Assembly (NCBI GenBank): GCA_963841915.1
Contig: CAWJEN010000006.1
Coordinates: forward strand, 960,001 to 1,024,000
From: an uncultured Planctomycetota bacterium
Lineage (GTDB): Bacteria; Planctomycetota; Phycisphaerae; Tepidisphaerales; Tepidisphaeraceae
DNA: 64,000 bases
Direction of reading: 5' to 3'
The notes below the pieces were generated by a model. It worked only from the letters and a program-made list of their open reading frames with translations, ran no database searches and was not told where the DNA came from. Both the position numbers and the translations under genes were made by a program. This document shows, one piece after another, positions 37,807 through 64,000 of the stretch. Each line of letters starts with the position of its first letter. Position 1 is the first letter of the stretch.

Positions 37807-38301
37807 ACCGACGCCATCGCCGACGTGGTGCGTCAGATCCCCGGCGCGAGCGACGTGAAGGTCGAGCAGACCGAGGGGTTGCCCGTGCTCGACGTGCAGA
37901 TCGTTCGCGCCGCGATCAGCCGGCTCGGGCTGAACGTGGCGGAGGTGCAGGACCTCGTCGCCGCCGCGGTCGGCGGACGCGAGGCGGGCGTGATCTTCCA
38001 GGGCGATCGCCGGTTCGACCTGATCGTCCGACTGCCCGAGACGATGCGCGGCGACGTCATGGCGCTGGCAAGCCTGCCGGTCCCACTGCCCGATGCGAGA
38101 ATCGGCTCGGCCGAGTTCGCGAGCATCGGCGTTCCCCCGACGGCCCCGGCTTTCGTGCCGCTGGCCGACATCGCCACGCTCGACACGACCGTGGGCATCA
38201 ACCAGGTCAGCCGCGAGAATGGCAAACGCCGCATCGTCGTCCAGGCCAACGTCCGCGGCCGCGACATCGGCTCGTTCGTCGATGAGGCCGAAAGCGCCGT
38301 G
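37807..38301 (+). pseudogene. CusA/CzcA heavy-metal RND efflux internal fragment
   Basis: GASDVKVEQTEGLP, GDRRFDLIVRLPE, NQVSRENGKRRIVVQANVRGRDIGSFV. Confidence 0.9.
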
Positions 38302-38493
38302 CTCAGCGGCGTCGCTCGCGCGGGTCGAGGCGGCGTTCTCATCAAGGGCGGCGGCGCGCTCGAAGAACTTGGCACGCTCACCGCGATCGCTTTCGACAAG
38401 ACCGGCACGATCACGCGCGGCGAACCCCGTCTGACCGACGTCGCCGCGGCCGAGGGCGCGACGGAGGATGAACTGCTGAGCGTTGCCGCGGCG
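38293..38493 (+). pseudogene. Heavy-metal P1B-ATPase internal fragment
   Basis: SAVLSGVARAGRGGVLIKGGGALEELG..AFDKTGTIT.GEP. Confidence 0.9.
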
Positions 38494-39717
38494 GCACGGC
38501 AGTTGAGCATCTCCGAAAAGACGCTGGCCAACTTGGTGCTGGACCGGCGGCTGACGCCGACGCTGACGCCGGCGTCTTCCACGGCGCAGGTGGAGGGCCA
38601 GGACGACCCGACGGTCTTGCGGCGACGCATCCGTGAGCTCGAAGTGCAGCTGCGGCGTGCCGAGTCCGAGCGGGAGACCCTCAAGCGGGCCACCGCGTTC
38701 TTCGCCCGCGAGGACGAACAGGACCACACGCAGGACCGCCCCCGGGAAAAGCGATGAGAGCACGGACGCGCAAGCTCGCACGGACGCGCAAGCTCGCACG
38801 GAAGCGTCTCTGGATCGAGAACTATCGCGGCACGTTCGACCTGACGAGCAGGTGCCGCGTGCTGGGCGTAGGCCGCAGCGGGCTCTATGCCGCGCGTCTG
38901 CAACGCACGTGATTGCCCGGCCCGCGTCAGGTTCGTCGGCAACGCCTTGCCGAGCAGGTGCGGGTCGTCCACGAGCAATCGTGTGGGACCTACACCGCCC
39001 CGCGGGTCGCCAAAGCCCTTGAGCAGCAAGGTGAGTCGGCCTGCCGCAACACGGTGGCGACGCTGATGCATTAACAGAATCTGCGTGGCCGCGGAAGACG
39101 GCGGCGTGTCCACGCACCACCGACAGCCATCACGGCAAGCCCGTCGCGGCCAACGTGCTCGATCGCCGCTTCACCGCAGATCGGCCCGATCAAAGCTGGG
39201 TCGGCGACATCACCTACGTCGCCACGGATGCAGTCTTTTTGTATCTGGCGGTCATGATCGACCTGTTCAGTCGGAAGGTGGTGGGGTGGTCGATGACCGA
39301 CCACATGCGGGCCGAGTTGTGCACCGACGCGTTGGCCATAGCGCTGGCGAACCGGCATCCGCGGGTAACTCCAGACCCGCCATTGCTGTTCCACAGCGAC
39401 AGGGGCAGTCAATACGCCATCCAGCCCCATCGCTTGGTGTTGGACGAGAATGCCATGACCTGTTCGATGAGCCGCGTGGGCGACTGCTGGGACAACGCGG
39501 TGTCGGAGAGCTTCTTCGCGACGCTCAAGACGGAACTGGTGCACGGGGAAAACCACCCCGACTACGCCGCCGCGTGTCGGTCGATCTTCGAATACGTCGA
39601 GGTGTTCTGCAACCGCCAGAGAATGCACTCGAGCCTGAACTACTTGTGCCCCGGAGCGTTCGAGGCCACACCTCCTTCACCCAACCGCCCCACGCCCACC
39701 GAACGTGGGTAATACCA
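38479..39717 (+). mobile_element. Degenerate IS3-family element, left end missing
   Basis: orfA AARQLSISEKTLAN..IRELE..ERETLKRATAFFA; orfB CRVLGVGRSG, WVGDITY, FHSDRGSQY, CWDNAVSESFF; candidate right end ..gaacgtgggtaatacCA at 39717. Confidence 0.88.
38760..38802 (+). repeat. 18-bp tandem duplication gcacggacgcgcaagctc (about 2.4 copies)
   Basis: Read directly at the orfA/orfB junction. Confidence 0.9.
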
Positions 39718-54956: not shown

Positions 54957-56981
54957 TCAAGCACCGGCCAACACAGGCTGCGGCGTGATGACGTCGCGGT
55001 GAATTCGTTCTTCGAAAGCATCTTCTATAGGCGTCGCGTCGAGTTCTTCGCCCTGCCGGACCAGTCGGGCCGAGTTGAAGACGACGATGATGCTTGACAG
55101 CGTTTGCAACGCAGCGGCAACGATCGGGTCGATATAGCCGGCCGCGGCCAGCAGGCCGAAGACGATGATGAAGGCCAGGCTGATGCCGATGCCTTGCATA
55201 ATCACGCGGCCGCTTTGACGCGCCAGACGCTGCAAGAACGGCACGCGGTCCAGCCGGTTGTTCATGAGCGCGACGTTGGCACTGCTAATGGCGACGTCGC
55301 TACCGGCGGCACCCATGGCGATGCTGAGATCGCCCGCTGCCAAGGCCGGTGCGTCGTTGACGCCGTCACCGACGACGGCAGTGACGAGGCCCTTCTGCTT
55401 AAGACCCTCGACCACTTTGAGCTTGTCGGCAGGCAGCACTTCGCCCTGTACGTCGGTGCAGCCGGTCTCTGCCGCGACACGCCGGGCGACGCTCCAACGG
55501 TCACCGCTGACCATGACCACCTGGCGGACGCCTTGCGTTTTGAGCAGGCTGACAGCTTCGGCAGCGTCGTCGCGGACCTTATCCTCCAAGCCGATCCAGC
55601 CGAGCAGCCTGCCGCCGCGGGCGACGTAGAGCACGCTGATGCCGTCCGGCGGTTGCTTGTCTTCGGCGAGCTCTACCGCGACGCCGTTGTCACCAAGCCA
55701 CGCCTCGCGACCGACGACGATGGTGTCGCCGTTGATGCGTCCGCGGACACCGAGGCCGCCCGTCTCTTCGAAGTCTTCAACCGGATCGACCTGCACGCGG
55801 GCCCGCTCGGCTGTTGCGACAACGGCTCGCGCAACGGGGTGCGTCGAGTTTTTCTCGACTGCGACGGCTGCGGCAAGCAGGTCGGCCGGCTCGACGCCGT
55901 CGACGGGTGCCAGGCGAGAAACGCTCAGGCGGCCAGTGGTGAGGGTGCCCGTCTTGTCGAGTACAACCGCAGAGAGATTTCGTGCCCGCTCGAGAACGCT
56001 GACATCTTTGATGAGAATGCCGAGCCGTGCCGCCGCAGATAAAGCGGCAACCATGGCGGTCGGCGTGGCGAGGATGATGCCGGCCGGGCTGCCGACAATG
56101 AGCAGCGCGACAAATCGGGGTGTGTCGTTCGTAAAGAACCAGACGACGGCTGCCACCATCAGCATCGTCGGGGTGTGATAGCTTGCGTAGGCGTCGGCGA
56201 GGCGCTGGGTGGCCGTCTTGCTCTGCTCCGCGTGGAGCACCAGATCCTGAACGCGGCCCAGCGTCGTGTCGCTGCCGGCGTGGGTGATGCGGACGTCGAG
56301 AGCGCCGGTCAGATTCGTCGTGCCACCGAAGACATCGGTGCCCTCGTCGACATCAACCGGCAGCGACTCGCCGGTGATGTTTGCCTGGTTGATGCTGCTC
56401 GTACCGCGAACGATCGTGCCGTCGCCCGGCAGGTTGTCACCCGGCTTGACGCGGACAACATCGCCGGGCTGCAGGTCTTTGGCCTCGACCTGCGACTCGC
56501 TGCCGTCGTCGTTGATCTTGAGCGCCGTAGTCGGCGTCAGGCGGAGCAACCGCTCGATCGTCCGCCGCGCGCCGAGAGCGGTACGGCTTTCGATGAGCGT
56601 CGACAGCGTCATGAAGAACGCGATCCAGCCAGCCGTCGTGTAAAGCGACTCTGCAAAGGCTGCCAGAACGGCCACCGCGGCAAGAACGCTGACGCCGAGC
56701 CGGCCTTGCCAAATGTCCTTCAGCGCGTCGACGATGATCGGAACGCCGAGCAGCAACGCTGCGAGGATGGCTGCGACGCTCGCATGGAAGTTGGCACCGC
56801 CTGCCGCGTCGTCGAAGGCGAAGCTGGCGGCGAATGCGACGAGCAACAGCACACCGCCGAAGAGCGTCATCACCAGCCGTGGCCCCACGGAGCGGGTCTC
56901 GCTCGGCTGATGGTCGGCCGGCTTTGCCGGTGTCGAGGCGGCGGTGGACTCGAAGATCGACGAAGGGCTTGCGGTGGTCAT
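54957..56981 (-). CDS. P1B-type ATPase with atypical membrane motifs
   Basis: TGES, DKTGT, HP, GDGVNDAPAL; TM6 reads IVGSPAG instead of CPC/SPC/CPH. Confidence 0.92.
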   Translation of the reverse strand: MTTASPSSIFESTAASTPAKPADHQPSETRSVGPRLVMTLFGGVLLLVAFAASFAFDDAAGGANFHASVAAILAALLLGVPIIVDALKDIWQGRLGVSVLAAVAVLAAFAESLYTTAGWIAFFMTLSTLIESRTALGARRTIERLLRLTPTTALKINDDGSESQVEAKDLQPGDVVRVKPGDNLPGDGTIVRGTSSINQANITGESLPVDVDEGTDVFGGTTNLTGALDVRITHAGSDTTLGRVQDLVLHAEQSKTATQRLADAYASYHTPTMLMVAAVVWFFTNDTPRFVALLIVGSPAGIILATPTAMVAALSAAARLGILIKDVSVLERARNLSAVVLDKTGTLTTGRLSVSRLAPVDGVEPADLLAAAVAVEKNSTHPVARAVVATAERARVQVDPVEDFEETGGLGVRGRINGDTIVVGREAWLGDNGVAVELAEDKQPPDGISVLYVARGGRLLGWIGLEDKVRDDAAEAVSLLKTQGVRQVVMVSGDRWSVARRVAAETGCTDVQGEVLPADKLKVVEGLKQKGLVTAVVGDGVNDAPALAAGDLSIAMGAAGSDVAISSANVALMNNRLDRVPFLQRLARQSGRVIMQGIGISLAFIIVFGLLAAAGYIDPIVAAALQTLSSIIVVFNSARLVRQGEELDATPIEDAFEERIHRDVITPQPVLAGA

Positions 56982-57045
56982 GCGTCGGCTCCTGCCAACC
57001 GTAGTGCCGTCGGACTTCGGATCCAAAAGCGCCTGATGCCCGCCG

Positions 57046-58041
57046 CTACGAAGCGTCGCGCGTCTGGAACAGTGCGACGGCTAACGCGAGGATGCCGACA
57101 ATCAACGCCAGGCCGTAAAGCGAGACAAGACCAACGTACTGCCAGCCGACATCGGCGATGGAACCCTGCGACAAGGCGTCGCTGAGCCAGTAAAACTGCA
57201 GATTTGGAATGGCGGCGTAACCGATCTGTGCCCACGAGGCGATGCCGGTGCCGCTTTCGTTGGCTGCGTTGACGAGACGACCAAAGGTGTAGTCACTGGT
57301 CAGCCCGAGCAGGAAGACGACGAGCATGATCGACAGCGTCGCCGCCTGACCAAGCCGCGTGCTGCACGCGACGGCAACGGCGGCGAACAACATCGTGGCC
57401 TCTAAGATCATGAAGGCCGCCAGCCACTGCCCGCGTGAGAAGACCTCGCCCGTCGGTTCTGCTGCAAAAGCATGATCAAAAGGAGCAGCCGCCAGAAGGC
57501 CCACAGGCAGCAGAATGGCCAGCCACCGGGCGGTTGTGCTGCCGAACGGCTTGCCGAACAGGTAATTGGCCGCCCCACCGATGACGACGCCGCCGAGTAA
57601 AGCCACGCCACCGAAAACCAGCACCGGAGCGTCCCAAGGCGTGCTGACGGTGCTGAAGGCACCTTGCCGGATCGCCAGCACGTGGACGATGGTCCAAACC
57701 CACCAGGCCAGGGCCAGAGCTACAGCGATGCCGATGTATTTGCCCAGGACGAACACCGGCCGTGCCAGCGGCTTGCTGATGACGGTCAACGCTGTCTTGT
57801 CTTCAATTTCACGACTGACGACGCCACTGGCGGAGAAAGCGGCCAAGACGAGTCCGCCGATGAGCAACATCGACAGACCCATGTCGGTCGCCAGCATATC
57901 ATCGTCGTCAAACGTGTAGGCGGCGAGGAACGGGCTGAGGATCAGGGCAAAGATCACGACGCCGAGCCACACGATGTAAAACGGCTGACGGACCGCTTCT
58001 ACAAGCGCATTACGAGCGACGGCGTAGAGCTGAATCAACAT
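57046..58041 (-). CDS. ABC-2-type exporter permease
   Basis: REIEDKTALTVISKPLAR..FVLGKY; multiple TM helices; PNLQ. Confidence 0.85.
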   Translation of the reverse strand: MLIQLYAVARNALVEAVRQPFYIVWLGVVIFALILSPFLAAYTFDDDDMLATDMGLSMLLIGGLVLAAFSASGVVSREIEDKTALTVISKPLARPVFVLGKYIGIAVALALAWWVWTIVHVLAIRQGAFSTVSTPWDAPVLVFGGVALLGGVVIGGAANYLFGKPFGSTTARWLAILLPVGLLAAAPFDHAFAAEPTGEVFSRGQWLAAFMILEATMLFAAVAVACSTRLGQAATLSIMLVVFLLGLTSDYTFGRLVNAANESGTGIASWAQIGYAAIPNLQFYWLSDALSQGSIADVGWQYVGLVSLYGLALIVGILALAVALFQTRDAS

Positions 58042-58557
58042 GAGTCGGACGCCGGGAAGCGGCGGATCACGATAGCTTAGCCGACAACGCGTCGGCCAAA
58101 ATCTCAGTCCAACCTGATCGCACGCCGTCGACCGTAAAGCCGTAAGCGATGACCGCCGAGTCGGTCCCGATGCCAAGGCCCTAGACGTTGCCGCCGATCC
58201 GGTCGTTGATATTCAATGGACCGGTCCACCCGACCTCCGCGTTGTTCCGGACTCGTATGTCCGGCCGAAGCAGGCAAGTGAACTTCCCATCGATTTCGTC
58301 AATTGCATCGAGCCGAAAGTCCGCCTGTCGCCCGTCGGACGAGTTGGCGAAGGCGTTGTCGTCGCTGAAGTCGATCTGCAGATTGGCGAGGCTGCGGAAT
58401 TCGCAGTGGTCGAATCACTCGATAATCAGCAGCAGCGACACGTCGCGGCTTCACCATCTACGCGTGGTGTGTCGTCGCAGACCCTGCCGGTGGCCCGGCA
58501 GTCGGCTGCAACGCTACAGTCGGCGGCGCGTTACCTTGCAACGCCGCAAGAGGAGCC

Positions 58558-60606
58558 ATGGCCGACGCGACCCCACGACTTAGCCCGCCCGACGCCGCAC
58601 CAGAATCAATGGCTGAGCAAGGTCGCGTCGTCGCCGCCTCGCTCGGCGGACTCGGCATGCAGTTTGTGCTTGTCGCGGTCGCACTCGGCCTGCTGACGAC
58701 CGGCAACCTCAACGGCCTGGGCCTAATCCCGTTTACGCTCGCCGGCTTGTTGCCGTGGGCGGCAGCGGTTGTTGCGGCAATCCTTCGCAAAGCCCGTGCA
58801 ACCGAGGCGTACGAGCTCGAAGCCGCACGACGCGGTGGCGAGGCGGCACGGACGATCTTCGAGAGCGAGATCGACGCCCGACCCGCAGGCCGCAGGCTCG
58901 AACGCTTCCTCAAGCTCGGCCTGCCGATCATCGGTGGCATTGTCGGCATCTTCCTGCTCTACAACGGGCTGACGATCCTGCGCACCGTCCTGGTCCTGCG
59001 GCAAAGGCCCTTCACCGCGCCCGACCTGCTGGCAGGTGTGACCGGTGCGGCAGCGTTCTTCGGGTTCGTCGCAGGCTTCTACCTCCTGGGGCTCGGCGGC
59101 TCGCTGAAGCGGCCGGTGCTGCGTGGTGCGGCGGTTTACCTGCTCGGCACGGTCATCCTGTTCGCCCTCGTCGCCGCTGCTGCCGCTATCGAGGCGGCGG
59201 TTGGGATCCGCGTCGTCTCAATCGTCGTCTACTACGCCCTGCCGATCATCACGTTGATTGTCGGTGTCGAGATTCTGCTTAATCTGGTTCTTGAGCTCTA
59301 TCGTCCGGCGGCGACGGGTGAAACAGTCGACAGCGCCCGGCCGGCGTTCAACCCACGCGTTGTCGAGTTCGCCGTCAGCCCGGGCGGGGTCGTTCGTCAG
59401 CTCAACGAGGCCTTCCGCTATCAATTCGGCTTCGAAGTCACCCAGTCGTGGTTCGTCGGCGTCCTCCGGAAGTCGGCCGCTTTGCTGCTGCTCGTCGGGG
59501 CTCTCATCCTCGTCCTGCTGAGCACACTCGTCGTCGTCAGGCCCCACCAGCGTGGTCTCGTCACGACATTCGGCCGGCTCGACAACGCGTCGCTCGAGCC
59601 TGGACTGCACGTCAAGTGGCCTTGGCCGATCAGCCGAGCCAGACTCGTGGAGACCGGCCGCATACGCACGCTTGTCGTCGGCACGGAAACCGACCTCGTC
59701 AACCATTCGAGCTATCTGTGGTCCAACCAGCACACGCAAAACAACGGCCTGCTGATCGTCAGTGGCACCGGGCAGACCGGCGAGGCTGCCGGCCCGGCCA
59801 TTGGTTTGGCCGCGGCAGATCTGCTTGTGCAATGGCGTGTGGATGAGAATCAGGTGCACGACTTCGTGGCCGGCTACGCCGAACCGACGCGACGGCTCCA
59901 GACGCTCGCCGACCAGGCGCTTGCCCGAGAGATTGCCAGGTACGACATCGACAGCGCGATCGGCTCGCGGCGGACGGACGTTGCCGCGGCCGTCGAGACG
60001 CGGCTTCGGTCGGCCGTCGATGGTGACCGGCTCGGCATCGATATCGTCAGCGTCGGGCTCAAGAGCGTTCGCCCGCCTGTCGAGGCGGCAGAGGCCTTCA
60101 ACGCCAGCGTCGCCGCCGAGCAGGACAGCGTCCGACTGGTCAAGGAAGGCGAAGCTCAGCGAGACGGCCTGCTGGCCCAGGTCGCCGGTTCGACCGAGCG
60201 GGCCTTGGAGCTGAGCTCGCGCATTCGCGCGTTGGAGCGGGCTGTTGTCGCCGAGGATGCCGACGCCGCTGATTTGTCTCGCACGGAGGCCGAGATCACG
60301 ACGGACCTGCTCGCCGGTGGCGGGTCGGCATCGGAGAACCTGCTGCAGGCCCGTGCCGTTCGTTGGCAGAGCGAGAACTCTGCCCGCAGCCGCACGGCTA
60401 GAGCTCGCGCCCTCGTTGAACCTTTCGCCAAGGCAGCGGACGTATTCCGCAAGCGGCTGTACCTCGAAGCCATCCGCGGGTCGCTCGCTGATCGGGCCAA
60501 AGATATTTACCTCACACCGAGTCCGGTGCAAATGGAGTTCGAAGGGGAAAGTGGCCTAGGCATCCGTGGTGCCGGCGGCCTGCGGATGCCCGAAGGTGAG
60601 CAGTAA
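58558..60606 (+). CDS. HflK-like SPFH protein with multi-TM N-terminal domain
   Basis: About 7 TM segments; VVRPHQRGLVTTFG, PGLHVKWPWP, VRPPVEAAEAF, RLYLE. Confidence 0.85.
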   Translation: MADATPRLSPPDAAPESMAEQGRVVAASLGGLGMQFVLVAVALGLLTTGNLNGLGLIPFTLAGLLPWAAAVVAAILRKARATEAYELEAARRGGEAARTIFESEIDARPAGRRLERFLKLGLPIIGGIVGIFLLYNGLTILRTVLVLRQRPFTAPDLLAGVTGAAAFFGFVAGFYLLGLGGSLKRPVLRGAAVYLLGTVILFALVAAAAAIEAAVGIRVVSIVVYYALPIITLIVGVEILLNLVLELYRPAATGETVDSARPAFNPRVVEFAVSPGGVVRQLNEAFRYQFGFEVTQSWFVGVLRKSAALLLLVGALILVLLSTLVVVRPHQRGLVTTFGRLDNASLEPGLHVKWPWPISRARLVETGRIRTLVVGTETDLVNHSSYLWSNQHTQNNGLLIVSGTGQTGEAAGPAIGLAAADLLVQWRVDENQVHDFVAGYAEPTRRLQTLADQALAREIARYDIDSAIGSRRTDVAAAVETRLRSAVDGDRLGIDIVSVGLKSVRPPVEAAEAFNASVAAEQDSVRLVKEGEAQRDGLLAQVAGSTERALELSSRIRALERAVVAEDADAADLSRTEAEITTDLLAGGGSASENLLQARAVRWQSENSARSRTARARALVEPFAKAADVFRKRLYLEAIRGSLADRAKDIYLTPSPVQMEFEGESGLGIRGAGGLRMPEGEQ

Positions 60607-60645
60607 GCTTGAGACGAACCGCAATGCCAGGAGCTGTTTGACCCG

Positions 60646-61610
60646 ATGAATCGCCTGCTCAACATCCTCGTCGCCCTTGCCCTGTTGCTCGTGCTGATCG
60701 GCTATGCGGCGACGTACACCGTCTCCTTCAATGAGACGGCCATCGTTACGACGTTCGGCAGCGCCGGTGACGGCAGCGTAAAGAACGCCCCGCGTCAGGA
60801 CGGTGTGACCGAGGCCGATCCCAATGACGGCGGTGCCGGCCTCTACTTCAAGCTGCCCTGGCCGATTCAACAAGTCGCCGCCCGTTACGACACGCGGGTG
60901 CAATTGCTCGAAAGTGCCGTCGAACAGGCCACGACGGGGGATCAGCAGAGCATTGTGCTACGCGTCGCAGTGACGTGGCGGGTCGTGGATCCGCTGGCGT
61001 TCTACAAGTCGCTCGGCAGCCTCGGCGAGGCCGAGTCGCAGCTCCGTAATCGGATCCGCGCCGCCCGCGGCCTCATCGGTGACTACGACTTCAACGACCT
61101 GGCCAACATTGAGGGCACTGCGACTGCCGCCAGCGAACTGGCCGACCGCATGATGACCGGCGTGCAAAGCGGTGTTGACTCCAGCGGCTACGGCCTGGAG
61201 GTATTGGATCTCGAAGTGACGAAGCTTGAAGTGCCCCGCGGCGCAGTGACTGACAGCGTGGTGCAGCGCATGGCCTCGGAGCGGACGCTCCTTGCCGCCC
61301 GGCGCAGCAATCGGGTGCTGCGGGCCAGGCTCGGCTCATCACCGAGGGTCAGCAGAACGCGAGCGTCATCACCAGCTTCGCCGAAGAGCAGGCGGCTGAG
61401 ATTCGCAGTCGCGGCGAGGCGGCGGCGGCGGCGACGTTGGCCGAACTGACGGGCGAAGCTGCAGAATTGGCCGTGCTGCTCGACGAAATTGAGACCATTC
61501 GCCTGTCAGCCGGCAGCCGTGCCCGATTCTTCATCGACGCCGCGTCGTTCTACCCGCTCAATCGGCTCAGCGAATTCCTCGACGTGCCCGAGCCGAAGGA
61601 GCAGCCGTGA
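60646..61610 (+). CDS. HflC-like SPFH protein, frameshift near 61300
   Basis: YTVSFNETAIVTTFG, GLYFKLPWP, WRVVDPLAF, RMASER; second frame continues ..AAEIRSRGEAAAA.. to a TGA overlapping the next gene's GTG. Confidence 0.85.
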
Positions 61611-63073
61611 GCGAATTGGCTCCAGAACACGATCACGATGCCGGCGTCGAGCAGACGCCCGAGCGAGGATTGACCGACGCACTGGCGATCAGCTTCCGCG
61701 TACTGCGGGTGCTGTTCGTCATCATGCTGATCTTCTTCCTGTTCAGCGGCGTCTTTACGGTCAACCAGAATCAAGTCGCTGTCCGCACCAGCTTCGGTCG
61801 AATTTCAGGCGGACCCGGCGGTGAAGTATTGACCGCAGACGGCGGACCTTACTTCCGCTGGCCCAAGCCGGTCGGTCAGGTCTTCTACATTCCGACCGAA
61901 GAGCGAAGGCTGCAGATCAGCCAGACGTTCGCCTTCCAGGCGACCGACAGCACCGAGTCGCTCGCGACGGCCGCCCCCGCGGCGGATCAGACGAATGTCG
62001 TCGATTTCGGCTTCCTTTTAACGGGTGACAAAAACATCGTCTACGCCCGGTACAACGTCGACTACAGGGTGCGGCCTGAGGAGGCTATCAGCTTCCTTCG
62101 CCATGCTGCCGGACCTGAAAACGACCGACTGCTTCTGCCCGATGGCCAGCTCGGTGCTCCTCGAGACACAGCTGATTTTGCTGTTATTGCCGACAATCCG
62201 GATCGGATGTTCGAGCGGGCCAACCGGCTCGTGGCCGCCGCTGTGGAGCAAGCGGTCATCGCCGACACGGCACGTCGCAGCGTCGAGGAGTTCCGGCTCG
62301 GCCGCGCCGCCGAAGGAACGAGCGATCTGCAATCCGCCATCACGGGCGACGCGCAGCAGATGCTCGATGACATGAATCTCGGCATCGAGATCGTCAGTCT
62401 GCAACGCACCGAAGCGTCCGTGCCGCCACAAATCAGAAGCATCTTCGAGCAGCTCAACCAGGCGTTACAACTTCAGGCAGCGCTCCTTGATCAAGGGCGG
62501 GGCGAGCAGCGGAATCTGCTAACGGGTGTCGCCGGCGATGCGGCCCCGGCGTTGCTGGCGTCGATTGAGGTTTACGAAGCGGCCGACGCCCGCCGGCAAG
62601 CAGGCGACGAGACGGCCAGTCAGGAAGCTGAAGACGCACGGCAAGCCATTGCCGACCTGCTGAATGGCGGGACGGTGAGCGAGGTCCTGACCCGCCTTGC
62701 CGAAACGCTGCCCGCCGACGCACCCGCCCGCCAGCAGTTACTCGACGAAGCGACGGCCGGCAGAAACCTGACGGTCAGCGGCACCGCATACGAGCTCGTC
62801 GGCACGGCCGCCAGTGATGCTTCGCAGATCGTCCGCCAGGCGCAGGCGCTTCGGCAACGCACGCAGGGGCTGACGGAGGAATACGCCGCCAACCCCGAGC
62901 GACTTCGCGGGCGTCTCATGCTGGCTGCACTTCGTGATATCCTGACCGCCCCGGACGCCGAGATTGAGTACGTCCCGGTGGCCGACATGATTCGCTTGCA
63001 GATCACGCCCGATGCTGAGCGTCGGAGCCAAAACGAACGTCGTCGTCTTGATGGCGCACGACAGCCGCAATAA
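61607..63073 (+). CDS. Second HflK-like SPFH protein
   Basis: LTDALAISF, SGVFTVNQNQVAVRTSFG, FRWPKP, LLTGDKNIV, VPPQIRSIF. Confidence 0.82.
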   Translation: MSELAPEHDHDAGVEQTPERGLTDALAISFRVLRVLFVIMLIFFLFSGVFTVNQNQVAVRTSFGRISGGPGGEVLTADGGPYFRWPKPVGQVFYIPTEERRLQISQTFAFQATDSTESLATAAPAADQTNVVDFGFLLTGDKNIVYARYNVDYRVRPEEAISFLRHAAGPENDRLLLPDGQLGAPRDTADFAVIADNPDRMFERANRLVAAAVEQAVIADTARRSVEEFRLGRAAEGTSDLQSAITGDAQQMLDDMNLGIEIVSLQRTEASVPPQIRSIFEQLNQALQLQAALLDQGRGEQRNLLTGVAGDAAPALLASIEVYEAADARRQAGDETASQEAEDARQAIADLLNGGTVSEVLTRLAETLPADAPARQQLLDEATAGRNLTVSGTAYELVGTAASDASQIVRQAQALRQRTQGLTEEYAANPERLRGRLMLAALRDILTAPDAEIEYVPVADMIRLQITPDAERRSQNERRRLDGARQPQ

Positions 63074-63085
63074 GGGTTTACCTAC

Positions 63086-64000
63086 GTGACGACCACCACC
63101 GCCACCAATACGACTCACGATGACGACGCCGTGCTGGAGCTGCGCGGCGTCTCCAAAACCTTCCGCGACTTCTGGCTCAGGCCACGCGTTAAAGCCGTTC
63201 AAGACGTCGATCTGGTCGCCCGTCGCGGCGAAGTCATCGGCCTGCTCGGCCCCAACGGCAGCGGCAAGACGACCACGATCAAGATGATCCTCGGGCTGCT
63301 CAACCCGACCGCCGGGCAGATCGCAGTCCTCGGCAAGCGGCCAAGCGACGTCGCTCTGAAGCACAAGATCGGCTACCTGCCCGAGGAGTCAAACCTTTAC
63401 CGCTTCCTCAACGCAGGCGAAACGCTCGACTTCTACGGCCGCCTGTTCAAGATTCCCGCCGTCGAGCGGAAGGGACGTGTCGAGAGCCTGCTCGAGATGG
63501 TCGGCTTGACCGCCGCTCGCTATCGGCCGGTCGGTGAGTATTCCAAGGGCATGCAACGCCGTGTCGGGCTGGCTCAAGCACTCATTAACGACCCGGACCT
63601 GCTCGTGCTCGACGAGCCGACCACCGGCATGGACCCGATTGCCACGCGGCAAATCAAGGACCTCATCAAGACGCTCCGTGATCGTGGCAAGACCATCCTC
63701 CTCTGTACGCACCTGCTCGGCGAAGTCGAAGACGTCTGTGATCGGCTCGTCATCATGTACGGCGGCAGGATCCGGGCATCGGGCACCGTCGGCGAACTGC
63801 TCACTGTGCCTGACAAGCAGTCGATCGAGGTCGACGGTGAAGCACTTGATGCGGCGACCGTCGAACGACTGACGGCAGTCATCAACGAAAGCGGCAGGCA
63901 GGTGTCCGAGGTGCGTCATCCACGTCAAAAGCTCGAGAACGTTTTCATGGATGTGATCGAGCTGGCCAATCGTGGCGGCGAAACGACCACCGGTGCCGCC
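63086..64000 (+). CDS. ABC transporter ATP-binding protein, runs off window
   Basis: Manual translation: GLLGPNGSGKTT, GYLPEE, YSKGMQRRVGLAQAL, LVLDEPT, CTH. Confidence 0.93.
   Translation, partial: MTTTTATNTTHDDDAVLELRGVSKTFRDFWLRPRVKAVQDVDLVARRGEVIGLLGPNGSGKTTTIKMILGLLNPTAGQIAVLGKRPSDVALKHKIGYLPEESNLYRFLNAGETLDFYGRLFKIPAVERKGRVESLLEMVGLTAARYRPVGEYSKGMQRRVGLAQALINDPDLLVLDEPTTGMDPIATRQIKDLIKTLRDRGKTILLCTHLLGEVEDVCDRLVIMYGGRIRASGTVGELLTVPDKQSIEVDGEALDAATVERLTAVINESGRQVSEVRHPRQKLENVFMDVIELANRGGETTTGAA

Follow-up and report, generated by a model that had tools for sequence, protein, structure and literature searches.

An eight-gene locus of Planctomycetota that links an HflK/HflC-like SPFH trio with a P1B-type ATPase and an ABC/TPR unit

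The stretch of DNA analysed here, hereafter the window, comprises 64,000 nucleotides (positions 960001-1024000 of contig C6, CAWJEN010000006.1, assembly GCA_963841915.1) of an uncultured planctomycete of the family Tepidisphaeraceae, and its end carries most of a cluster of eight genes in which three SPFH genes of HflK/HflC type stand beside a P1B-type ATPase and an ABC transporter-like unit. Open reading frame (ORF) calling and family scans verified two divergent arms. The minus-strand arm consists of the P1B-type ATPase (54957..56981; ATG start with AGGAG upstream; TIGR01525, 532 bits), a member of an HmtA-like, SPFH-linked clade, and of an ABC-2-type permease of 331 amino acids (permease 1; 57046..58041; PF12679 at E 6e-6, below the cut-off). 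Across an intergenic region of 516 bp (58042..58557), the plus-strand arm starts with K1 (58558..60606), a Band_7 protein of 682 amino acids with several transmembrane (TM) helices, in which a predicted CDF-fold domain is followed by a linker, an HflK-type TM helix, an SPFH domain and a coiled coil. K1 is followed by C (60646..61610), an HflC-like SPFH protein whose gene is frameshifted in the present assembly, and by K2 (61607..63073), an HflK-like SPFH protein of 488 amino acids with one TM helix, whose GTG start overlaps the stop of C (GTGA at 61607-61610). The next gene encodes an ABC ATPase of 393 amino acids (63086 to 267 bases beyond the window end; C6:1023086-1024267), with the Walker A motif GPNGSGKT, the signature YSKGM and an acidic C-terminal tail; its best NCBIfam matches are DrrA and GldA, both below cut-off. 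Past the window end, still on the plus strand, lie permease 2 (C6:1024264-1026132), which overlaps the ABC ATPase gene by ATGA and has 622 amino acids with a large hydrophilic insertion, and X (C6:1026180-1028126), a membrane-anchored helical protein of 648 amino acids with one N-terminal TM helix and a predicted TPR-like solenoid.

A preceding sequence-only reading of the window had described the two divergent arms, the tightly packed plus arm with its GTGA overlap and an operon running past the window, and these features are borne out. It was also right that the window holds no ftsH, hflX or hfq: the sole FtsH of the genome, which has a two-TM-like N-terminus, is encoded about 950 kb away on the same contig, hflX lies on another contig, and searches of the genome detected no hfq (at E<=1e-3) and no other hflKC. 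Its argument that the splitting of the ABC halves ties the two arms together is weak, because the second permease follows the ABC ATPase on that gene's own arm; the arms are tied by gene order instead, with all eight genes co-oriented in 9 of 47 complete related loci.

A correction concerns the HflC-like gene, which is not one open frame: the frame switches between about 61293 and 61314. Both halves are 40-62% identical to intact genes of the closest relatives, C is intact in the relatives compared, and the stretch after the shift is an open frame, 40-48% identical to close relatives. About 9 kb away, a gene of flavoprotein/4Fe-4S type, judged by its sequence (G000:C6:1030020-1032537; G000 is the present genome), is split by a frame change near 1030586 and is 86-90% identical to the intact frame of a congener. 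Since both parts of C match intact relatives and another conserved gene nearby is split, the frameshift is likely an assembly indel.

The cluster is real, conserved and larger than the window shows. When GTDB genomes were scanned with an alignment of K1, 445 related stretches emerged, and the 80 best were taken as loci of the Planctomycetes-Verrucomicrobia-Chlamydiae (PVC) group; their titles are nearly all Planctomycetota, with three Verrucomicrobiota. With gene profiles built from the same loci, and hence tuned to them, and with partners counted only where the contig flank sufficed, six partners are present in 100% of the informative loci (C 71/71, K2 64/64, ABC ATPase 53/53, permease 1 65/65, permease 2 47/47 and X 43/43), and the pump is linked in 29 of 44. 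This co-occurrence far exceeds chance, so the neighbourhood survey upholds the conservation across PVC genomes that had been suggested. For pump-less loci, a pump orthologue was found elsewhere in four of five genomes tested (the one in G017 rests on an 803-bit contig-end fragment, which is unplaced in the tree). The 47 complete loci, which include a few genomes counted twice, show several gene orders: the pump lies between K2 and the ABC ATPase in 19, permease 1 lies beyond the trio in every one of the 47, and two more loci, in which the permease 1 match is weaker, have this gene after that of X. Where the pump has left the locus, the ABC arm still accompanies the trio. Among the 150 matches listed, a K1 match reaching the N-terminal domain occurs in at least 48 of 201 evenly sampled planctomycete genomes, and within the family of the present organism full-length K1 was found in four congeners and one other genus, among 24 genomes (one of them, G006, unpublished). 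One complete eight-gene locus (L123, CAYQWK010000036.1) is on a contig titled Bifidobacteriaceae; its pump groups with those of Verrucomicrobiota loci, and the title is probably a binning error.

In an AlphaFold2 model of K1 (predicted local distance difference test, pLDDT, 88), the C-terminal half matches HflK, and the best structural match is E. coli HflK (E 5.6e-14). Approximately residues 20-250 form, according to the model and to profiles, a six-helix CDF-fold domain. The top match of this domain is SLC30A10, over 178 residues at a root-mean-square deviation (rmsd) of 3.4 A and Z 13.7, a value near the level that the tool grants helical bundles by chance; together with ZnT3 (Z 12.0), ZnT1, ZnT8 and ZnT4 (about 10), ZnT/SLC30 transporters make up the five best non-SPFH structural matches of K1. 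A profile of 29 CDF sequences aligned with the K1 profile over 185 columns (probability 74.9, E 2.6e-5), five controls reaching at most 1.45. The metal site is lost: at the positions of D45, D49, H153 and D157 of site A in FieF, the window's K1 has F59, G63, Y194 and T198, Gly occupies the D49 position in 84 of 102 family members, and at the D157 position Asp is not among the six commonest residues of the K1 family, whereas it is present in 29/29 ordinary CDFs. E238 and R249 are invariant in 102/102 K1 sequences. No ordinary CDF transporter was found in the present genome or in three of four congeners, and 14 of the 18 family genomes searched (including the unpublished G006) have one.

Related trios show what the first SPFH position can hold. 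In 6 loci (L048, L049, L166, L170, L171, L245), the first SPFH protein carries a fused CDF that is intact or nearly so, and the profile of these fused CDFs and that of the K1 N-terminal domain match each other's members. A whole P1B ATPase occupies the same place in 4 trios (L168, L169, L236, L237); these fusions of about 1000 amino acids, with CPC and a TM6 HQ, head K-C-K-type operons, and their pumps form their own clade (support 0.98). In 7 trios (L173-L175, L246-L249; four Pfam-checked, the rest identified by a custom profile) the fused partner is an ArsP/DUF318 permease, and no P-type ATPase was detected in the stretches around them. The fusion loci were picked from a search listing for long frames, and they therefore show that such fusions exist, not how frequent they are. 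Because the first SPFH slot of related trios holds an intact CDF, P1B ATPase or ArsP permease, the trio would seem to be a transporter scaffold, and the suggestion that the SPFH proteins are tied to transporters gains support from these fusions.

The trio has the SPFH domain, N-terminal TM helix, coiled coil and K- and C-type subunits of HflK/C, and yet by its sequences it is a lineage apart from them. The scores fall under the TIGR01933 (159.4) and TIGR01932 (134.4) cut-offs (K1 110, K2 58.5 and C 56.8, the last for the N-terminal frame only), and several intact relatives of C do exceed the TIGR01932 cut-off. In a tree of 179 SPFH sequences and 284 columns (FastTree only), the trio proteins of PVC bacteria and proteobacteria cluster according to their position (K1 0.83, C 0.85 and K2 0.99), with a few divergent loci, L046-L048 and L166 basal, and it is the planctomycete two-gene pairs, not the trio, that group with E. 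coli HflK (0.88) and HflC (0.62). The view that the trio stands apart from the locus of FtsH, and from ordinary hflKC as well, is supported.

The pump has 674 amino acids from its ATG (689 from an upstream TTG), six predicted TM helices and no N-terminal metal-binding domain. It keeps DKTGT, TGES, HP and GDGVND, catalytic motifs that are invariant or nearly so across 48 pump sequences. The metal-binding positions are different: TM4 reads SPA rather than CPC, and the TM6 His is replaced by Gln, unlike in its four closest relatives. CPC is present in 42 of 63 extended-module and 12 of 16 core-locus pumps (those without the ABC genes), the rest being degenerate, with the variants SPA, TPA, TPC, CPS, CPG, CPT, CPF, CPM and VPA spread over several separate branches; the TM6 His is kept in 59/63 extended-module pumps, 13/16 core pumps and 11/63 extended ones have HN, and SCA is present in no linked pump. 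Many module pumps have His-rich N-termini. In a FastTree phylogeny rooted on E. coli CopA, the 79 linked pumps, a count that includes the proteobacterial ones but not two ZntA-like pumps of CDF-type trios, are one clade (support 1.0), apart from ZntA-like, CopA-like and fused pumps. The window pump has no Cys-containing TM4 tripeptide of the kinds CPC, SPC, PCP, SCA or CSC and fits none of the motif-defined P1B subclasses listed in PMC13460109; in particular, it fails the P1B-6 (FezB/CtpC-like) signature of SCA and HNxxT, having SPA and QT. A gene of the ZIP family (Pfam Zip, 65 bits) comes after one unlinked pump orthologue (L255:5178-8272, genome G030, which has two such pumps).

A smaller version of the cluster, i.e. 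a four-gene core of long K, C, K and pump without the ABC genes, is found on plasmids of Rhizobium, Klebsiella and Burkholderia as well as in other planctomycetes. The sequence-only reading knew of no characterised function for such clusters, which overlooks the hmtA locus of Pseudomonas aeruginosa, where the same core is found and responds to zinc starvation. The three SPFH genes and hmtA rise 5.6- to 14-fold in a znuA mutant (PMC4542158), proteins of the trio and HmtA increase under zinc depletion (PMC11761036), and Zur shifts the PA2439 promoter (PMC8531726); a review terms HmtA a Cu/Zn importer (PMC8456098). The three SPFH genes are probably PaFlo5-6-7 of strain PA14, as one three-SPFH operon is reported per paper. 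The original HmtA work reportedly assayed HmtA without its operon partners.

The remaining genes have another history. Permeases 1 and 2 are paralogues (hhalign probability 99), and a heterodimeric membrane domain would fit this relationship. X is predicted to fold into one TM helix and a TPR-like solenoid (pLDDT 86); it gave no Foldseek match at E<=0.001, only generic TPR/HAT solenoids in VIA (best Z 12.3, rmsd 7.5) and no Pfam or NCBIfam family match, and its profile covers 3,348 clusters (50% identity). In one source a short X paralogue bears the label 'IRE (Iron responsive...', for which no basis was found. The profile matches 138 of 201 planctomycete genomes, mostly through short paralogues, and the 20 short-paralogue loci examined are all without the trio, mostly as ABC-permease-X rows. 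In Ca. Manganitrophus (Nitrospirota), homologues of the ABC-permease-TPR-permease set directly follow a prepilin gene, among pilM/PilZ genes. Prepilin motifs were found in only 6 extended-module loci (L034, L070, L083, L110, L117, L148), so this pilus link appears mostly not to have been kept in the extended module. The present genome also has a paralogous ABC ATPase-permease-X unit (G000:C5:151099-155857, equivalent to L178:8100-12858) and a permease-1 paralogue (C5:1098972-1100075, L179) about 2 kb from a cluster of pilB-pilT-pilB-type ATPases. To judge from the sequences, then, the module joins two older units, the HflK-HflC-HflK and P1B core and the ABC/TPR unit.

From the observed linkage, predicted folds, fusions and phylogeny we infer physical contacts and a substrate as follows. 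A single machine of the inner membrane is the likely product of the eight genes. Within it, K1, C and K2 would build a periplasm-facing cage of HflK/C type, in whose ring K1 and K2 presumably alternate with C, in the manner of HflK and HflC, and whose likely clients are the co-encoded transporters rather than FtsH. The disabled CDF domain of K1 would act as a docking or partner subunit within the membrane that holds the P1B ATPase in the ring. A second complex, composed of an ABC ATPase dimer, the permease heterodimer and X as a periplasmic adaptor, may have been recruited from a pilus-associated ABC unit and would act in the same membrane patch; our best guess for its substrate is an envelope protein or metal-loaded cargo. 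The machine most likely serves the handling of transition metals (Zn/Cu-type), and the export or remodelling role proposed before is less supported. Because the pumps of the genus have lost both TM4 cysteines, and that of the window also the TM6 His, the window pump probably transports an ion that is less thiophilic, or else serves its partners as a motor driven by ATP. Overall, we give about an even chance to a metal-handling system in which a three-subunit SPFH cage scaffolds a P1B pump by way of a disabled CDF domain and, in PVC bacteria, scaffolds an ABC/TPR complex as well.

Several observations weigh against this interpretation. Of 44 informative loci, 15 lack a linked pump, and each half also exists alone, the K-C-K-pump core in some genomes and the ABC/TPR unit without SPFH genes in others. 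Contacts of the pump with the cage are argued from linkage, and synteny and fusion speak for linkage, not for enclosure. The metal role is carried over from Pseudomonas, where hmtA mRNA was not zinc-repressed in one study (PMC8531726), and no regulatory (Zur-type) box was detected in the intergenic region of the window. The CDF domain and many of the pumps have degenerate metal ligands. Besides the modest structural score of that domain, there is the result that a shallow profile of seven K1 N-termini of Pseudomonas type failed to match the CDF profile or that of PVC K1.

Other readings have to be set against these points. The two halves may be separate modules that share one promoter region, with K1-C-K2 serving the P1B pump only and the ABC/permease/TPR unit acting on pilin or another envelope substrate; the solitary occurrence of both halves, the wide distribution of the X family with its 20 trio-less loci, the set behind the Ca. 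Manganitrophus prepilin gene and the paralogous units of the present genome, one near pilB/pilT-type ATPases, would all suit this arrangement. It does not sit well with the intermixed gene order of the two halves (a pump placed between K2 and the ABC ATPase in part of the loci, permease 1 beyond the trio), nor with an ABC arm that stays with the trio where the pump has left, nor with the scarcity of prepilin motifs, and we consider it unlikely. It is quite improbable, moreover, that the trio is simply this lineage's HflK/C caging FtsH, in an operon that couples the transporters to their proteolytic control. K1 does resemble E. coli HflK more than any other structure, the genome has a single FtsH with a two-TM-like N-terminus and no other hflKC, and FtsH is a zinc protease (PMC11761036). 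However, in nine planctomycete genomes a trio coexists with an ordinary K-C pair of two genes, the type that groups with E. coli HflK and HflC, and 16 of 24 genomes of the family are without any HflC-like match. The FtsH-contacting R185 of HflK (PMC13220708) is kept in 11/11 pairs as against 5/24 K1 and 12/24 K2, being lost in K1 and K2 of the window (R141/E142 are not kept even in ordinary planctomycete pairs). Deletion of the three-SPFH operon of PA14 did not reproduce the tobramycin, swimming and pyocyanin phenotypes of hflKC, its effects being limited to a slight drop in biofilm and to attenuated virulence (PMC13086221).

A further possibility is that the PVC machine no longer moves metals, and that a P1B ATPase with a decayed ion site powers its CDF-derived partner in transporting or remodelling a non-metal substrate that is passed to the ABC complex. 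KdpB, which powers KdpA, offers an analogy for a P-type ATPase driving a partner subunit. Degeneration of TM4 in several branches next to invariant catalytic residues would be expected in such a case, as would a K1 that has lost its CDF site and retained E238 and R249 throughout. Against this, two thirds of extended-module pumps keep CPC and nearly all the TM6 His, many have His-rich N-termini, one unlinked orthologue adjoins the ZIP-family gene, and a non-canonical motif, APC, does not keep CtpG of M. tuberculosis from transporting cadmium (PMC13460109); we give the idea little credence. Least credible of all is that the module, genuine in relatives, is decaying in the present genome. The frameshift in C and the Gln in TM6 of the window pump could be read as decay, but beyond the shift the frame is open and resembles that of close relatives, a strongly conserved gene about 9 kb off has a frameshift too, as assembly indels would lead one to expect, and the remaining seven genes are intact. 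A broader proposition, which extends the metal-handling scaffold beyond this locus, seems possible but rather doubtful to us: a widespread and as yet undescribed class of bacterial SPFH cages would have one subunit built from a transporter, with CDF, P1B ATPase and ArsP interchangeable, and in PVC the cage would corral a P-type motor, a disabled CDF and a heterodimeric ABC/TPR complex into a station for metal delivery or envelope assembly. If true, it would be a prokaryotic SPFH cage defined by its transporter clients, with a P1B pump that works through a partner subunit.

The clients of bacterial SPFH proteins beyond HflKC-FtsH are largely open, and deletion of all nine SPFH genes of P. aeruginosa in a 2026 study gave only mild phenotypes (PMC13086221). 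The present family names a likely client in its own sequence, because its first subunit is fused to a metal transporter or its relic. The scaffold may explain the odd import behaviour reported for HmtA, and the locus adds to PVC cell biology a conserved eight-gene envelope machine and a family of 3,348 clusters that has no Pfam entry. Neither the PVC module nor the transporter-SPFH fusions were found described in the literature searched, which took in few subscription journals and left supplements aside; the core is known from P. aeruginosa, where its scaffold is unexplained.

Some neighbouring features remain to be mentioned. Promoter and palindrome scans of the intergenic region (58042..58557) yielded nothing above chance or interpretable, and no sigma-70 consensus match. 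Between the arms there is a start-less open frame of 77 codons on the minus strand (58181-58414), with high GC content at third codon positions, which is possibly a gene remnant; no match was found in the compared relative loci or in the rest of the genome. Neighbouring TPR439 and DUF547 genes were rejected as module members (present in 0 of 20 relative loci), as was a GT87-methyltransferase neighbour, shared with only one congener among the same 20. At 37825-39712, a frame of 310 amino acids joins an efflux-permease-like piece to a P-type ATPase fragment beside an IS3-like integrase frame, and the region looks like disrupted metal-transport genes.

Among known systems, the E. coli HflK/HflC-FtsH cage (PDB 7vhp/7vhq, 7wi3, 9cz2, 9paw) shares the SPFH and coiled-coil fold and the K and C types, and differs from the module in that the latter has three subunits, one with six extra TM helices, in separate clades and without the hfq-hflX-yjeT context. 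CDF/SLC30 transporters (YiiP/FieF, ZitB, ZnT1/3/4/7/8, SLC30A10) have the six-helix fold predicted for the K1 N-terminal domain, but K1 lacks the site A aspartates and has a linker and SPFH unit in place of the cytoplasmic C-terminal domain. Geobacter XapABCD is a pilus-associated ABC unit. Myxococcus PilGHI, encoded by ABC-like genes needed for pili (PMC3724824, PMC6060248), likewise brings together an ABC ATPase, permease(s) and a further accessory protein, and the set behind the prepilin gene of Ca. Manganitrophus brings it to mind, a likeness drawn from descriptions rather than from sequence comparison; unlike these two systems, most eight-gene loci have no pilin motif nearby. In M. tuberculosis effluxosomes (PacL with CtpC/CtpG/CtpV; PMC13460109), an operon-encoded scaffold also stabilises and clusters a P1B ATPase, which makes them a functional analogy, although PacL is a single-TM DUF1490 protein rather than an SPFH protein and the available text describes no ABC arm. 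Ferrosome fez clusters (bioRxiv 10.1101/2020.01.10.902569) place an atypical P1B-6 pump, FezB, among membrane proteins, and its TM6 HNxxT resembles the HN of core-type pumps, but linked pumps have no SCA in TM4 and the available part of the preprint mentions neither SPFH nor HflK. The closest relative is the P. aeruginosa locus PA2439-PA2434, which has three HflK/HflC-family genes (PA2439/2438/2437) and the P1B ATPase HmtA (PA2435), and which was compared through proteobacterial plasmid loci rather than PAO1/PA14 sequences. The plasmid trios have the same order of long K, C, K and pump, and their proteins share clades with those of the window; this core is without the ABC/permease/TPR arm, and its pumps mostly keep CPC and HN, whereas the window pump keeps neither. 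In the available literature on the Pseudomonas trio, its proteins are treated as FtsH partners or left unexplained, without mention of a CDF-like domain.

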